Of a DNA stretch of 64,000 bases, positions 52,893-55,989 are shown one piece after another (within the stretch, counting starts at the first letter, position 1; each line of letters starts with the position of its first letter). The position numbers and the translations under genes were made by a program. Under the pieces are notes generated by a model. That model did no database searches. It was not told the DNA's origin and saw only the letters and a list, made by a program, of their open reading frames with translations. The stretch spans positions 1 through 64,000 of the IMG/VR virus record IMGVR_UViG_3300031555_003603. One strand, written 5' to 3'. Source of the stretch: a virus.

Positions 52893-52926
52893 AATAGGGA
52901 AGCCTTAGCAAAAGGCTTCCCTATTT
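52893..52926. terminator. bidirectional terminator between convergent gene blocks
   Basis: aatagggaagcctt-agcaa-aaggcttccctatt flanked by A/T runs on both sides. Confidence 0.65.
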
Positions 52927-53234
52927 TCTTTTAATCGTTTGAAGAACAAATTGGTTTTACATACAATTTCTTGTCCATAAGTGGCAATTAAATCTGCGAA
53001 CAATTCTTCTTGGTCAATACTCATTTCAATATTGTAGCTAAACATAGCTGCATGTGTGAGTTCATGACATAAAACTTTTTTCATCATTGGATAATCCAAA
53101 TCTTCACACAAATATATTGTTTTCAAGTAATCGTCACAGGCACCGATAGACCAAGTTCCATTACTACGCTGTAATTGTGGATGATTTGGAGAGACCAGAA
53201 GGACTCTCCAATTTTCACCATTGATATTTATCAT
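52905..53234 (-). CDS. ImmA/IrrE-family (DUF955-like) HExxH metallopeptidase
   Basis: CHELTHA motif. Confidence 0.5.
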   Translation of the reverse strand: MININGENWRVLLVSPNHPQLQRSNGTWSIGACDDYLKTIYLCEDLDYPMMKKVLCHELTHAAMFSYNIEMSIDQEELFADLIATYGQEIVCKTNLFFKRLKENREAFC

Positions 53235-53236
53235 TT

Positions 53237-53965
53237 TATTTTAGTGGCCAAGGCAGCGATACGGTTGCTCAATAATTGTTTCTCCTCTGGGGAGGCGCCT
53301 TCAACCATTTCAACCATATCGGAGGTTAGTTCCTATACATATTTTTCAAGCTCTTGCATCTAAGAGGCTTTATCTTTATGCATCTCCTTGGACTCCATAT
53401 ACATTTTGCGGGTTTGAGGACTGCGACCTTCACGACGGTCACGCATCATTTCTCCGAACGGCATTTCTCGTTCAGAATAGTTACGAGTTCCAGAACCATT
53501 TGAAGAAGAGCTGCTGCTGCCACTGGAAGAACCGCTATTTCCGCTTCCGCTTGAGCCCGAGTTTCCTCCATTATAATACATACGTCCTTTCATTTTGTCC
53601 ATATCTCTATAATATTCCCATTCAGGATAATAAGGATATGGCATTTCTCCACCGTGATACATCATATTGTAATCTTCGTAATTGCGTCTATCATTACCTC
53701 CGCGAGAACTATCGCGACCATCTGTATTACCAGAACGTTCTGTGTAGTACATAACTGGATAATACATCATACCGCCATTGCCATTGCCTTTTTCTTCCTT
53801 TTCTTCCATGGCTTTAGTAATGGTGCAATAATAAATAGCTTCTGATAAATCTTTTATCATATCGACTGCTTCGCCAAGTTCTTTGGCATCAACAGTATCT
53901 AAATGAGTTAGTTGGCCCTAAACGCATCCAACTAACATTTCTTTCATTTGTTTTAATTGTTCCAT
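53237..53965 (-). CDS. low-complexity Tyr/Met/Gly/Ser-rich protein with helical N- and C-terminal segments; 3 in-frame TAG
   Basis: ATG 53965 with AGGAGG RBS; ORF-track 53360..53860 is its middle; true TAA stop 53237 abuts next start. Confidence 0.5.
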
Positions 53966-53979
53966 AGCTATTTACCTCC

Positions 53980-54399
53980 TTATGCTACGCGCTCTACAAT
54001 CAAGTTAGCATTTTGAACATCAATAGACTGAGTACTGATATTTCTAACACTTACTTGAGAGCAGCATCCACGAGGAATATCTAAATAAATGGCGCCAAAT
54101 ACGTTAAAGAATTCTTCAACAGCGGCAGGAGTTACAATCATAGTTGTTGAGGCTATTGGTTCTCCATCAATAGCCAGAGCCAGAGAAATAGCTTCTACTG
54201 TGCCACCGGCTGGAATTGCGATATTTCCGCCAAAAGACACCTTGAAGCGTGCGCGGCACTGGTCAGTGACCCCTTTTAGGGTCACCAAACCAGAACCGGT
54301 ACGGTGCATAGTACAAGCTTTTCCTGGAACAACAGTATCGGTAAAGAGAACATTTTGATTCTCTAAAACTGTCTGTAGTTCATTAGCAATAATTTCCAT
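53980..54399 (-). CDS. hypothetical beta-rich protein
   Basis: AAGGAGGG RBS, ATG 54399. Confidence 0.45.
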   Translation of the reverse strand: MEIIANELQTVLENQNVLFTDTVVPGKACTMHRTGSGLVTLKGVTDQCRARFKVSFGGNIAIPAGGTVEAISLALAIDGEPIASTTMIVTPAAVEEFFNVFGAIYLDIPRGCCSQVSVRNISTQSIDVQNANLIVERVA

Positions 54400-54419
54400 C
54401 AAAACTTGCCCTCCTTTAA

Positions 54420-55268
54420 TTAGTTACAACCGCAACCACAGTTGCTGCTATAGTTTACAACAGGGTAGTTATAGCAGCAGTTGGGATTAGGAACTACATA
54501 AGCAGGAATGGGGCAATCGCGACCCAAACGACGAATTAATTCGGCGGTCTGAGCATCCTGGTTAGCAGTAATAAATGCGTTCTGAGCAGCTTGAGAAGCA
54601 GCAAACTTCAAGCTCTGATTTTCAGCGGTCAAAGTGGCAATCTTATCCTGAGTCAAGAAGTCAAGGATAGAACGAACGCCAGCGTTGTTGCTATCGATAA
54701 TATCACGAGTACTATCGGCAATAGCGCGCTGAGTAGCATTGGCCTGAGTAGCCATATTGTATCCAATATCGCAGAAGCCCTTAGCCAAGTCGCTACGCAA
54801 ATCGCAGCAGCAAGCAGCTAATTGAGTACCAAGACCGGTAATACCAGCATTGATAGCAGTAGTATTTTGCATATTAGCAATAGTATCAGCATGAACGGCA
54901 TCTAAAATACCATAACCAGTAGTAGTAATGGCATTATTTACACCAGCAAAGCCCTGACATAGAGTGCTTTGAACATCGCTGAAACCATTTAGCATACCAG
55001 TATTTACAGCATAGAAGCCATCACACAGGCCCTGCTGAATACCACGAACACCATTCTCTAAGCCGTTCATATCAAAGCTATAAGAGATTTCGCTCTGGCC
55101 ACGACCGCCGCCTTGGCCACCCCAGCCATTACCATTGCCCCATCCGCCAAGAGCGAACAGGAATAATAAAATAATCCACCAACCGTTATCACCAAACATG
55201 CCGTCATTGTTGCGGCCAGTTACTGCGGCAATATCAGATAGGCTGTATCCACCATTAGTATTAAACAT
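54420..55268 (-). CDS. Gly/Cys-rich membrane protein (YjcZ-like N-terminus: G-rich + IILLFLFALGGWG; tandem GF..VN..LC.GF repeats; Cys-cluster C-terminus)
   Basis: GGAGG RBS; no TAG. Confidence 0.45.
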   Translation of the reverse strand: MFNTNGGYSLSDIAAVTGRNNDGMFGDNGWWIILLFLFALGGWGNGNGWGGQGGGRGQSEISYSFDMNGLENGVRGIQQGLCDGFYAVNTGMLNGFSDVQSTLCQGFAGVNNAITTTGYGILDAVHADTIANMQNTTAINAGITGLGTQLAACCCDLRSDLAKGFCDIGYNMATQANATQRAIADSTRDIIDSNNAGVRSILDFLTQDKIATLTAENQSLKFAASQAAQNAFITANQDAQTAELIRRLGRDCPIPAYVVPNPNCCYNYPVVNYSSNCGCGCN

Positions 55269-55284
55269 ATAAATTTACCTCCAA

Positions 55285-55542
55285 TTATTTTTTAGTGTCG
55301 AGGCCTAACATTTCTACAAAGTGTGGGAATTCTGTATCAAAGTCAATGCCTCTTGATTTGGCTATATTGCGCACAATCTTTTCAATATCAGCGGTTTTTC
55401 CATTTTTTGCCAATTCATACAGATTTGCGCCCATAGGGGTAGAAGACATATTATTTTCTAAAATATTCAACATCAACTGTTGTGGGTTTTGTCCATTTTT
55501 TATAGCTTGGACCAAAAGCATAGGATTTACATTGTAATTCAT
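55285..55542 (-). CDS. hypothetical protein
   Basis: GGAGG RBS. Confidence 0.45.
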   Translation of the reverse strand: MNYNVNPMLLVQAIKNGQNPQQLMLNILENNMSSTPMGANLYELAKNGKTADIEKIVRNIAKSRGIDFDTEFPHFVEMLGLDTKK

Positions 55543-55554
55543 TTTATTTCCTCC

Positions 55555-55989
55555 TTAGAAATTTAGTAAGGGTTTTGCGGCCGGTTGTTCAACTTGAACG
55601 GGTTTACTTGGGGCAGCGACCGGCTACACAGTTGCGCGCAACTGATTTATGACAGCTTCAAATTCTTCTCTTGTAATAAATTGATTTGGAGTGAATTCTT
55701 GTTCTGCTGGAACTTCTTTCAATTCATACATATTCAGAATTGCAGTGCCATCAACATTGATTTGTTTAGTATAGATTCTTTTATTTGCTAAGTCTGGAAA
55801 ATAAAAGATAGAGCCGTCAAAATCAATAATACTTGCACGAGCTTCTTCCATAGAAGCTACTGGACGGCCCTTAATTCCCATATACTGCTACTGCGATTGA
55901 TAAATTGGCCGATTCATCATATAATTAGTATAAATGGGTTGTTGTGTTTGCGCTACAGGCGCATAAGAAGAGTTTGTGTTGTTATACAT
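55555..55989 (-). CDS. hypothetical protein (2 in-frame TAG)
   Basis: GGAGG RBS + ATG 55989; frame open through TAG 55888 and 55624 to TAA 55555. Confidence 0.45.

Follow-up and report, generated by a model that had tools for sequence, protein, structure and literature searches.

C1q/TNF-type jelly rolls are known from two settings that bear on the locus described here. In the Bacillus exosporium and in endospore appendages they occur in BclA, F-BclA, L-BclA and ExsFA (BxpB). BclA consists of an N-terminal exosporium-targeting domain, a collagen-like (GXX)n stalk and a knob fused to the end of that stalk, and ExsFA is a stand-alone domain of ~150 aa; this system, too, has Cys-rich partners and includes a step of maturation by proteolysis. 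In viruses, such knobs tip the tail fibres of cyanophages A4 and A-1(L), the receptor-binding protein of lactococcal phage 1358, P5 of PRD1, P1 of PM2 and the collagen-like C1q proteins of giant viruses. Two other bodies of work are relevant, on the morons and lysogenic-conversion cassettes of phages (e.g. those at the lysin-attachment-site junction of Gram-positive prophages) and on gut phages in which TAG is read as Gln, such as the Agate clade of ~154 kb (bioRxiv 10.1101/2021.08.26.457843). The six genes analysed here, which lie in a 64-kb stretch of viral DNA (the window), make up an accessory module of gut Bacillota phages that is self-contained, moves horizontally and is dispensable.

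The cassette is real and is flanked by terminators. Its co-directional genes run along the minus strand from 55989 to 52905 in the order p1-p2-p3-p4-p5-p6 (Table 1), and a GGAGG ribosome-binding site precedes five of the six rather than all of them, as a previous sequence-only reading had it, the exception being p6. The tandem terminators which that reading placed upstream are indeed there, in the form of two minus-strand hairpins (56192-56159 and 56148-56117) with stems of 15 and 12 pairs followed by T runs, but the downstream hairpin, which it took for bidirectional, scores as a terminator on the plus strand only. The cumulative GC-skew maximum coincides with this downstream hairpin. Between the tandem hairpins and p1, alignment with three relatives (L003, L005 and L006) outlined a conserved block, TTGGCAAATTGGGAAAATCGTATT, within which the direct repeat TGGGAAAAT occurs at 56064-56072 and 56084-56092; this region may be a cassette-specific promoter or operator, and its motif has no further copy elsewhere in the window. 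Since no sigma-70-like promoter was found upstream of the cassette on the minus strand, the proposal that it forms its own transcription unit rests on the terminators and the conserved upstream block. At the other end, the p5 stop overlaps the p6 start as ATGA, and p6 is translationally coupled to p5.

Table 1. Features of the cassette and its boundaries (positions in the window)
Feature	Position	Strand	Description
holin gene	56195-56584		upstream of the tandem hairpins
tandem terminator-like hairpins	56117..56192	-	after the holin gene; upstream boundary of the module
upstream non-coding region	55990..56116	-	block conserved in relatives, and p1 GGAGG site
p1	55555..55989	-	144 aa; two in-frame TAGs; phrog_21718
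p2	55285..55542	-	85 aa; N/M-rich, helical (12.9% Asn, 7.1% Met)
p3	54420..55268	-	282 aa; phrog_16490
p4	53980..54399	-	139 aa; ATG start; in-frame TTG at 54402
p5	53231..53965	-	244 aa; three in-frame TAGs; stop overlaps p6 start
p6	52905..53234	-	109 aa; predicted minimal HExxH zincin, DUF2268-like
terminator-like hairpin	52891..52927	.	downstream boundary; convergent with plus-strand gene 52451-52888

The N-terminus of p3 comprises a conserved peptide (LSDIAAVTG), a short hydrophobic anchor at about residues 30-44 (WWIILLFLFALGGW) and a Gly-rich linker. Its AF2 model has one continuous predicted helix spanning residues 70-249 (180 residues) with 11/3 periodicity, at a pLDDT of 80-91 for residues 140-240 and low elsewhere. 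The 'GF..VN' repeats pointed out previously are real and form an 11-residue repeat whose hydrophobic periodicity of 3.65-3.67 residues is held over 180 residues and, for residues 70-130, was reached in 0 of 1000 shuffles. Also borne out are the Gly-rich stretch and the Cys-rich tail (13.1% Gly and 4.3% Cys, against window backgrounds of 6.7% and 1.4%); in alignments the CCC motif at residues 153-155 is invariant, and a PIPAY motif and the Cys-rich tail are also present. The most conserved stretches are in the long helix and not in the tail, p3 relatives having 230-290 aa. A likeness to YjcZ, by contrast, found no support, as neither p3 nor 15 of its relatives matched an NCBIfam or Pfam sporulation family at E ≤ 1, and p3 is far longer than the ~30-50 aa of YjcZ.

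The most conserved gene of the module is p4, which the sequence-only reading left undescribed. It is predicted to encode a stand-alone C1q/TNF-type jelly roll of the same kind as the C-terminal domain of BclA. Its best structural matches are Bacillus spore-surface proteins, and 6 out of 20 diverse relatives match BclA_C (PF18573) in Pfam, with a best E of 4e-7. The p4 of the window itself has no BclA_C match at E ≤ 1, a comparison of the family with the B. anthracis BclA C-terminal domain alone by hhalign is insignificant (probability 1.5%), and an hmmsearch of PDB sequences with the family profile found no BclA. The family forms 724 clusters at 50% identity, and since the best 150 of these 724 cluster representatives all have 83-196 aa, no p4-stalk fusion is visible among them. 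The identity of p4 stays above 60% even between phages that have little else in common, their sources being humans, ruminants, lemurs, rabbits and chickens.

Low complexity and conserved ends characterize both p1 and p5. The former starts with a Q/Y/N-rich segment (residues 1-36), continues with a small conserved β-rich domain (…Y.K…) and ends in an FVTREEFEAL-type helix; in the latter, a conserved helical domain at the N-terminus and a conserved helix at the C-terminus enclose a low-complexity stretch rich in G/S/Y/R/M, in which the motifs MYY and GRSP..R..YMESKE are conserved. Present in 87 of 92 loci in a jackhmmer search, p1 is a universal core member of the module. Long and short forms of p5 are homologous in their N-terminal domain (hhalign 92.5%). 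The composition ascribed to a gene at 53237..53965 was correct (10.7% Gly, 10.7% Ser, 9.5% Met and 7.8% Tyr), although that gene, once TAG is read as sense, runs from 53231 to 53965. No Coat_F match was found for p5 or 12 of its relatives, so that a likeness to CotF is not supported, what matches there were being low-complexity noise (e.g. SR-25, 21.6 bits against a cut-off of 40). p2 may be an assembly chaperone; a Q/M-rich protein of 66-75 aa occupies its position in other backbones, and an hhalign comparison of the two types was not significant. No Pfam or NCBIfam match was found for p1, p2, p3 or p5 and no PDB sequence match for p1, no PADLOC model matched any of the six proteins at E ≤ 1, the PHROGs families matching p1, p3 and p4 are all of 'unknown function', and PHROGs gave nothing for p2 and only non-significant matches for p5. 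In this sense, the view that this is a discrete, compositionally odd module outside described phage systems holds good.

The last gene, p6, encodes a predicted minimal zincin with the motif LCHELTHAAM, in which HELTH occupies residues 57-61. Its best Pfam match is DUF2268 (E 9e-7, 29 bits, above the cut-off of 23.6), and it matches phrog_1233 and phrog_87 in PHROGs. It shares the HExxH helix with other minimal zincins (the predicted proteases DUF2268 and DUF6782, ImmA/IrrE of the M78 family, and SprT-like proteins) but, with 109 aa, spans only the N-terminal part of their profiles. The HExxH motif pointed out earlier is borne out, but not the likeness to ImmA, since the score against Peptidase_M78 (18.8 bits) is below the gathering threshold of 22 and, unlike for ImmA, no cognate repressor is encoded beside p6, there being no HTH gene in or beside the cassette in the window. 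Among loci that carry p6, identity is 36-91%. Across 80 loci, 37 have the zincin, 32 have instead a protein with invariant Cys, His and Asp residues (phrog_3754) unrelated to p6, and the two never occur together; the 11 remaining loci lack either protein, a contig end truncating nine of them. One small putative peptidase, either the zincin or the Cys/His/Asp protein, therefore seems integral to the module, in keeping with the earlier suggestion that the peptidase belongs to the system.

On sequence grounds, the window belongs to a TAG→Gln recoded phage (genetic code 15), a feature on which the sequence-only reading was silent. If TAG counts as sense, 88.8% of the window is taken up by open reading frames of at least 100 aa, compared with 69.5% under code 11; tail genes contain 11 and 19 in-frame TAGs, and Gln is the commonest residue aligned to TAG in four of the eight genes tallied. 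The cassette has five in-frame TAGs, two in p1 (55890-55888 and 55626-55624) and three in p5 (53920-53918, 53362-53360 and 53335-53333), all three of the latter aligning to Gln in L003 and L005. With the standard code, p1 and p5 break into five pieces, and their gene models are thus valid only if TAG is sense; by the same token, standard-code gene calling fragments this module in TAG-recoded phages. TAG makes up 38% of Gln-type codons in tail genes, 0-4% in the gyrase, ligase, DnaB and Pol III genes, 14% in p1 and 33% in p5. Among the 22 Gln-type codons of p3 and p4 there is no TAG (P = 3e-5, given the rate in late genes), so that the argument for late-only expression rests on p1 and p5. The window contains no tRNA genes, hence no suppressor tRNA(CUA), and no release factor 2 was found in it.

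The module is widespread, well beyond what chance would produce. The relatives of p3 form at least 8,000 clusters at 90% identity, as do those of p4, and both thus belong to the commoner gut-phage protein families that lack a name. Gene order is kept in all 90 loci examined, where p1, a small protein of the p2 type, p3, p4, p5 and a single small putative peptidase stay constant. Everything around them varies: the flanks of 80 viral loci fall into at least 14 unrelated groups, with backbones of 23-139 kb, and the cassette sits after the holin gene in the window phage and in L003-L018, between lysin and integrase in L020 and L049, inside the head module in Dulem virus 35, immediately upstream of the scaffold and capsid genes in L093 and L094, and, in L144, on the very edge of an integrated prophage, where a YafQ toxin gene and host genes adjoin it. 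Many phages carry it together with a sigma-r4-like regulator of its own. In L148, a close natural relative, p1-p5 have been cleanly deleted and both upstream hairpins and p6 retained, with a junction at an AACCG microhomology that brings the second terminator right up to the final 30 nt of p5; the module is thus dispensable. Dispensability, a variable site, flanking terminators and a GC content of 41-45% (45% in p3 and 42% in p4, against 27-30% in the holin and neighbouring tail genes) are the marks of a moron-like accessory element. A core that is mobile yet losable, comprising five genes plus a peptidase, suggests a general ecological function, for which adhesion, protection and transmission, the least understood part of gut phage biology, are candidates.

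The reading that we tentatively prefer is that of a portable 'split BclA-like' anchor-stalk-knob fibre, made of p3 and p4 together. p3 would provide the N-terminal hydrophobic anchor and a rod ~27 nm long, a single amphipathic hendecad helix of 180 residues that probably bundles with copies of itself and that the CCC motif and Cys-rich tail could clamp through disulfides or a bound metal. p4, whose gene comes next, would form the C1q/TNF-type trimeric knob, with p1, p2 and p5 acting as adaptor, chaperone or matrix proteins. The putative peptidase (zincin p6 here) would trim one component, the likeliest substrates being the conserved N-terminal peptide of p3 and p5, to which p6 is translationally coupled. 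Given that no signal peptide was found in any of the partners and that p1 and p5 contain TAGs, assembly would start when TAG comes to be read as Gln and would proceed on the cytoplasmic side of the membrane, and the fibre would be exposed only when holin and lysin open the cell. However, overall confidence is low for the two structure models (pLDDT 59.5 and 61.6), and we infer the p3-p4 contact and the trimeric state, the predictions being of monomers. The window's p4 falls below BclA_C detection, and p4 is the most conserved part, the opposite of the usual host-specific fibre tip. Moreover, the hydrophobic core of p3 is short (~14 residues, maximum KD19 1.36), topology cannot be deduced from it, and an 11/3 amphipathic helix could also lie flat on a membrane, apolipoprotein-like, in line with weak apolipophorin matches. 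Finally, p3 and p4 lack TAG, which leaves the late-only argument to p1 and p5, and no promoter was identified.

An accessory fibre of the virion, in which the peptidase removes the anchor and p3/p4 fibres join heads or tails via p1 as adaptor, is a less likely scenario. Such a fibre would be a general adhesin, e.g. a lectin for mucus or cell-wall glycans, comparable to whiskers, head fibres and side tail fibres. C1q/TNF knobs typically form the tips of fibres in phages and giant viruses, the module is found within or alongside late structural operons (including, in some loci, the interval between portal/MuF and scaffold/capsid genes) and it is dispensable like Hoc, wac and stf; the small helper proteins might correspond to fibre chaperones, and the conserved tip might fit a target common to gut habitats. 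However, an N-terminal hydrophobic anchor is odd for a virion protein of a tailed phage, no backbone-specific adaptor is evident across the many unrelated backbones, the regulator and the prophage-end position beside a toxin-antitoxin gene fit poorly, and no structural-protein homology was found for any cassette member in Pfam or PHROGs.

A module acting on the host membrane in infected or lysogenic cells is likewise doubtful. p3 would then be a membrane-anchored or membrane-coating helix with cytoplasmic partners, serving superinfection exclusion or other defence, lysis timing or membrane remodelling, with the peptidase as a possible switch. The moron-like traits (sites, GC, terminators, regulator, prophage end by YafQ, dispensability) would suit such a role, as would the p3 anchor and its 11-mer periodicity, which is that of lipid-binding helices, together with weak similarities to apolipophorin and HA2. 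The cassette adjoins a holin or lysin gene in many loci, and a protease next to a membrane protein may recall protease-activated effectors. Nevertheless, PADLOC offered no match, a cytoplasmic C1q/TNF-like trimer and prion-like low-complexity proteins have no known precedent in defence or lysis systems, the TAGs of p1 and p5 oppose expression under the host's standard code, and the extreme conservation of p4 is unlike that of fast-evolving defence sensors.

More of a long shot is a portable 'armour or nap kit', a phage-borne equivalent of the exosporium hair layer, in which the p3 rod, the p4 knob and a Cys/Tyr/Met/Gln-rich matrix of p1 and p5 would come together at the membrane as the cell dies and, upon lysis and first contact with oxygen, become cross-linked around virions or membrane remnants. 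If true, it would protect or tether phages of strict anaerobes in transit between guts. In a variant, p3 would be a protease-primed membrane-inserting rod akin to class I fusion proteins, in which a long coiled coil comes after a hydrophobic Gly-rich segment and cleavage does the priming.

Conversion of the spore surface, whereby products made in the mother cell would add a BclA/ExsFA-like nap or a coat layer to host spores, was the leading idea of the sequence-only reading but is very improbable. The structural matches of p4, the BclA_C matches of its relatives and the Cys-, Tyr-, Gly- and Ser-rich compositions, which recall coat proteins, would agree with it, mother-cell assembly needs no signal peptide, and the bin labels of cassette loci are mostly Clostridia, many of which form spores. 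However, the core is also present in Butyrivibrio phage Ceridwen, for which only lytic growth has been seen, on Butyrivibrio fibrisolvens, which is not known to sporulate; p3-like genes occur in Bacteroides and crAss-like phages; the phage here is large, with no integrase in the window; and no YjcZ, Coat_F or other sporulation family was matched. A spore-specific role is unlikely, given the occurrence of the core in Ceridwen and the need of two genes of the window for TAG suppression. Least credible of all is a processed Cys-rich peptide or bacteriocin cut out of the p3 tail by the peptidase and released in bioactive form, since, despite the conserved Cys-rich tail, a peptidase that on this account is always present and an N-terminus that may loosely resemble a leader peptide, genes for a modifying enzyme, a transporter or immunity are absent from the cassette, p3 is long and best conserved in its helix, and p4, p1 and p5 would have no role. 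The sequence-only reading as a whole is thus partly confirmed in what it observed and partly supported in how it interpreted it.

How does the locus compare with the systems mentioned at the outset? With recoded gut phages, especially the Agate clade (bioRxiv 10.1101/2021.08.26.457843), the window shares the TAG→Gln code, relatives of 140-175 kb, a bidirectional GC-skew pattern and a concentration of TAG in structural, lysis and homing-endonuclease genes, TAG being nearly absent from core replication genes; unlike them, it has neither suppressor tRNA nor release factor within its 64 kb. Morons and conversion cassettes have in common with the module its terminators, foreign GC, variable sites and dispensability, and also a location at a prophage end beside a toxin-antitoxin gene. 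Unlike these, however, it is a six-gene, internally co-adapted assembly system and not a single effector gene, has TAG-dependent genes and is found in apparently virulent phages as well. The proposed p3/p4 fibre would share a trimeric knob fold, an elongated stalk and late-gene encoding with viral C1q/TNF-tip fibres, but these have knob and stalk fused into one protein, with a knob that changes with host range, whereas p4 is separate and the most conserved part, the p3 stalk has a hydrophobic N-terminal anchor, and the module crosses unrelated virion types. Another close parallel of the proposed split BclA-like fibre is the exosporium system: like ExsFA, p4 is a stand-alone domain, and the order of p3 (anchor and stalk) and p4 (knob) mirrors the domain order of BclA. 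Yet knob and stalk are separate polypeptides here, p3 is an α-helical hendecad rod devoid of GXX repeats, the anchor is a hydrophobic membrane-type segment, and the genes, unlike those for BclA, are borne by phages, including phages of hosts not known to sporulate. If the split fibre is real, it would be the first BclA/C1q-type knob to occur as a separate subunit with an α-helical, membrane-anchored stalk.

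Six tightly spaced genes (p1-p6) were found on the minus strand when the window was read through from 56300 to 52700, bounded on the holin side by two hairpins and at the far end by a third, in agreement with the sequence-only reading. Two details of that reading held in part. GGAGG, claimed for every gene, lies 6-9 nt 5' of the start in five of the six, but p6 starts inside the stop codon of p5 (ATGA); and the two upstream terminators stand, whereas the downstream hairpin, described as bidirectional, scores as a terminator on the + strand only. The coordinates it gave for p5 passed over three TAG codons unremarked and ended 6 nt early. 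A scan of the minus strand for sigma-70 promoters found none, and the local TGGGAAAAT and TGGCAA…GGGAAAAT motifs show no enrichment elsewhere in the window. The cassette stands out as an island of high GC (p3 45%, p4 42% and p5 41%, vs 27% for the holin gene and 30% for the adjoining tail genes). Cumulative GC skew reaches its maximum at ~52000-53000, where gene orientation changes from + to -, which places the cassette at the point where the window's two halves converge, or at their terminus. The gene converging on it, p8, encodes a protein of 145 aa, hydrophobic in an N-terminal segment, with three in-frame TAGs and matches to two PHROGs families of unknown function (phrog_4257 and phrog_4105), and is the neighbour in all close relatives, a deletion variant included.

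Features of the cassette region in window coordinates
Feature	Position	Strand	Remark
Holin gene	56195-56584	-	phrog_13712 'holin', E 3e-27; its end falls in 56300-52700
Two terminator-like hairpins, 3' of holin	56192-56159 and 56148-56117	-	Upstream of cassette
Spacer between second hairpin and p1	127 nt	-	
p1	55555-55989	-	TAGs in frame at 55890-55888 and 55626-55624
p2	55285-55542	-	
p3	54420-55268	-	
p4	53980-54399	-	
p5	53231-53965	-	TAGs in frame at 53920-53918, 53362-53360 and 53335-53333
p6	52905-53234	-	
Hairpin where the p6 end meets p8	52891-52927		Terminator score on + strand only
p8	52451-52888	+	

Standard-code ORF calling splits p1 and p5 into fragments. Pseudogene remains were rejected as an explanation: the genes are conserved, and Gln is the residue to which the TAGs align. 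The window comes instead from a phage that reads TAG as an amino acid, most likely Gln. With code 11, 69.5% of the window falls in ORFs of 100 aa or longer, and with TAG as sense 88.8%, two minus-strand genes with tail-type PHROG matches hold 11 (56603-58801) and 19 (60583-63870) in-frame TAGs, and the longest tail-gene ORFs of five relatives (L003, L005, L006, L007 and L097) hold 9-20. In tblastn comparisons with homologues, eight genes were tallied, and in four of them, among these the genes for a 732-aa tail protein, RuvC and p8, TAG positions most often faced Gln. All three p5 TAGs stand opposite Gln in the two closest relatives, and one p5 relative carries TAG in place of CAG or CAA codons of the window. 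The share of TAG among Gln-type codons is 38% in structural genes, 20-50% in the lysin candidate, RuvC, p8 and homing endonuclease genes, and 0-4% in the gyrase, ligase, DnaB, RecD, ThyA and Pol III genes. This distribution agrees with what has been published on code-15 gut phages; the size of the window's relatives (140-175 kb) and its bidirectional GC skew resemble those of the 'Agate' clade (bioRxiv 10.1101/2021.08.26.457843), and TAG recoding as such is already known. A tRNA gene search of the 64-kb window found none, so there is no suppressor tRNA within it.

Within the cassette, TAG frequencies in p1 and p5 are at the late-gene level, and these two proteins are therefore not producible under the host's code. 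For p3 and p4 of the window the TAG count is 0/22 Gln-type codons (P = 3e-5 at the late-gene rate), with one TAG in the p3 of each of three relatives; recent import from standard-code phages fits this absence as well as any regulatory reading. Elsewhere in the window, homing-endonuclease-like genes of HNH and GIY-YIG types (48999-49736, 26012-27097 and 33923-34798, all +) lie amid replication and nucleotide-metabolism genes, e.g. between nrdD-like and nrdG-like genes, and have TAG at 22-50% of Gln-type codons next to TAG-poor neighbours, a pattern that Borges et al. reported for an intron endonuclease. The GIY-YIG type was assigned by eye, and the equivalents in relatives have Pfam GIY-YIG matches. 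The list of TAG-as-sense ORFs does over-call: a 604-aa low-complexity ORF (552-2366, -), opposite and overlapping a plausible + strand gene (1920-2966), looks like an artefact of wrong-strand TAG read-through.

The cassette is a discrete, mobile and non-essential module with a fixed parts list. Relatives of p3 and p4, collected at E <= 1e-3, number at least 8,000 each, none of them named or with a Pfam domain, and the member names in their clusters are all 'hypothetical'. A search of 1.84 billion cluster representatives returned 724 p4 clusters at 50% identity, and the best 150 of these 724 representatives are all small (83-196 aa). Among the first 92 homologous loci fetched, p3 was present in 92, p4 in 90 and p1 in 87, in invariant order, and the p2 position held a small Q/N/M-rich protein across loci. 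The two loci without a detected p4 are Bacteroides and crAss-like records; p3-like proteins without detectable p4 come from a Bacteroides phage and crAss-like Suoliviridae. In the crAss-like phage cr52_1 (L091), the p3-like gene (3710-4633) has two in-frame stops under the standard code, and this record may also be recoded; its gp23 label, 'spike protein/glycoprotein', probably reflects a weak HA2-like similarity also found for p3. The best conserved cassette gene throughout is p4 (90% identity to its counterpart in L005, vs 59% for p3, 67% for p1, 56% for p5 and 57% for the holin).

Outside the cassette, the backbones of 80 IMG/VR loci form at least 14 groups without mutual nucleotide similarity, and the insertion sites vary. 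The cassette lies 3' of the holin gene in the window's clade, between lysin and integrase genes in two ~42-kb temperate phages (L020 and L049), at the extreme end of the integrated prophage L144, with a YafQ toxin gene and then host genes beyond it, between portal/MuF and scaffold/capsid genes in Dulem virus 35, directly 5' of the genes for scaffold and capsid in L093 and L094, and, in Butyrivibrio phage Ceridwen, which is lytic, 3' of an endolysin-like gene. In many viral contigs (L019-L090, IMG/VR) it is within 1-2 kb of a contig end, which could reflect assembly breaks at sequence common to co-occurring phages, or proximity to a physical genome end. All 49 matches in a scan of a genome collection were on metagenome-derived contigs, mostly phage-sized, whose bin labels include the implausible Methanobrevibacter and Akkermansia, and host assignments from such labels are unreliable.

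Dispensability is seen in L148 (IMGVR_UViG_3300029305_003961), a 96.7-kb viral contig related to the window (62% identity in the holin, ~90-91% in p6 and ~90% in p8). At its positions 7380-7500 the second terminator hairpin abuts the last 30 nt of p5 (…IAALATKIK*), which is followed by p6; the 2.8 kb missing, with p1-p5, correspond to the interval between window positions 56117 and 53262, and the microhomology AACCG(C/T)(A/T)T is common to both breakpoints. Because the p5 remnant persists, this is a deletion and not a site that was never filled. An essential role in lysis was rejected, since L148 lacks the module and lysis genes are not always its neighbours. As for the window's own lysis genes, the likely endolysin (15904-17646, +; 580 aa, seven in-frame TAGs, PG_binding_1 and SH3_3 domains) is ~39 kb from the holin gene and on the opposite strand, and a second wall-hydrolase candidate (Phage_lysozyme2) lies at 38061-38894. 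The window also encodes an SPFH/Band 7 (flotillin-like) protein of 507 aa with a long Ala/Glu/Lys-rich coiled-coil tail (12250-13773, +; no TAG).

Compared with Pfam, NCBIfam, PHROGs and PADLOC, the six proteins matched only 'unknown function' PHROGs (p1, p3 and p4) and, weakly, zincins (p6); profile searches of PDB sequences with p1, p3 and p4 gave nothing significant, and scanning individual members of the p1, p3 and p5 families against Pfam returned only noise. The 282-aa p3 opens with a conserved peptide at its N-terminus, followed by a hydrophobic core of 14 residues, a linker rich in Gly, a helix and a Cys-rich tail. Residues 70-249 are predicted to form a single helix (pLDDT 80-91 over 140-240), and the tail is predicted to be disordered. 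Hydropathy averaged over the family is dominated by a single period of 3.65 residues, whose phase is kept across all 180 residues. This periodicity is 11/3 and not the heptad 3.5, and the 'GF..VN' repeats noticed earlier correspond to four 11-residue units. Charged residues are sparse in the helix (about 23/180 by our own count), CCC (153-155) and Pro262 are invariant, Pro255 is nearly so, and the one invariant Cys of the tail is Cys279. Apolipophorin and HA2 matches of p3 in the PDB (E >= 0.03) are treated as compositional. In Foldseek comparison with viral models, the predicted C1q/TNF-type jelly roll of p4 retrieved collagen-like C1q proteins, tail fibres and a 'BclA protein'. Pfam BclA_C was matched by 6 of 20 diverse p4 relatives (best E 4e-7); the window's p4 has no such match, and hhalign of p4 against a single BclA CTD was not significant. 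From the p4 fold, the rod-like prediction for p3 and the strict adjacency and order of their genes, we infer that both proteins might form an anchor-stalk-knob fibre, a BclA-like design split in two polypeptides and with a helix in place of the collagen stalk.

The remaining proteins would serve this putative fibre. p1 has a Q/Y/N/P-rich N-terminus, a small conserved beta-rich domain and a helix; p5 has helical conserved ends and a G/S/Y/R/M-rich middle with short conserved motifs, and its long and short forms have a homologous N-terminal domain (hhalign 92.5%). Together with p2 they may be helpers, a role assigned by exclusion and composition alone. p6 is a 109-aa HExxH zincin. A second type of cassette, without it, has just 5' of p1 a ~125-155-aa phrog_3754 protein with invariant Asp-Cys, His and Asp (e.g. 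L020, L049 and L144). Of 80 loci surveyed, the zincin occurs in 37 and the Cys/His/Asp protein in 32, never together; nine of the 11 with neither are cut by a contig end. Such non-orthologous replacement of a putative peptidase argues that proteolysis belongs to how the module works. A gene for a sigma-70 region-4-like HTH protein lies ahead of the Cys/His/Asp gene in the prokaryotic-like examples inspected and in L049 and L093, whose cassettes are of the short form. Because a hydropathy scan of p4, p1, p2, p5 and p6 found no strongly hydrophobic segment, assembly would take place in the cytoplasm, with exposure after lysis.

Three versions of where the products would be displayed were weighed. 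An accessory fibre of the virion would suit the kind of fold, the late context and the locations within head modules; however, a membrane-type anchor, portability across virion types and a separate regulator are hard to reconcile with it, and we consider this reading unlikely. Action at the host membrane, to which the moron behaviour, the p3 anchor and the lipid-helix-like periodicity point, is likewise doubtful, since its parts are unprecedented and no homology to defence or lysis proteins was found. Conversion of the spore surface, an idea of the sequence-only reading, draws on composition and on the closest structural relatives, but appears very improbable: the carrier Ceridwen was observed growing lytically only, its Butyrivibrio host is not known to sporulate, and p3-like genes occur in Bacteroides phages. 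Moreover, no sporulation family was matched. The YjcZ label once given to p3 found no counterpart in Pfam or NCBIfam, CotF for p5 dissolved into the noise of its family scan, and the ImmA label for p6 gave way to DUF2268, which scored above the Pfam cut-off with M78 below it. A peptide or bacteriocin system has almost nothing in its favour.

The module is very common, strongly conserved and structurally unusual, with a function that we infer, and the one cultured carrier found, Ceridwen (MN882553, genes QHJ73766 to QHJ73772), makes it experimentally approachable. No description of the p1-p6 cassette was found in the literature, the Ceridwen paper gives no function for the cassette genes, and a search for phage-encoded BclA, exosporium or endospore-appendage proteins and TNF-like prophage proteins returned nothing relevant. 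Among described systems, the module comes nearest to the BclA/ExsFA proteins of the exosporium and to viral fibres with C1q/TNF tips, with which it has a fold and a design logic in common. It lacks their defining architecture, a collagen stalk and a knob fused to it, and is therefore not counted as a member.
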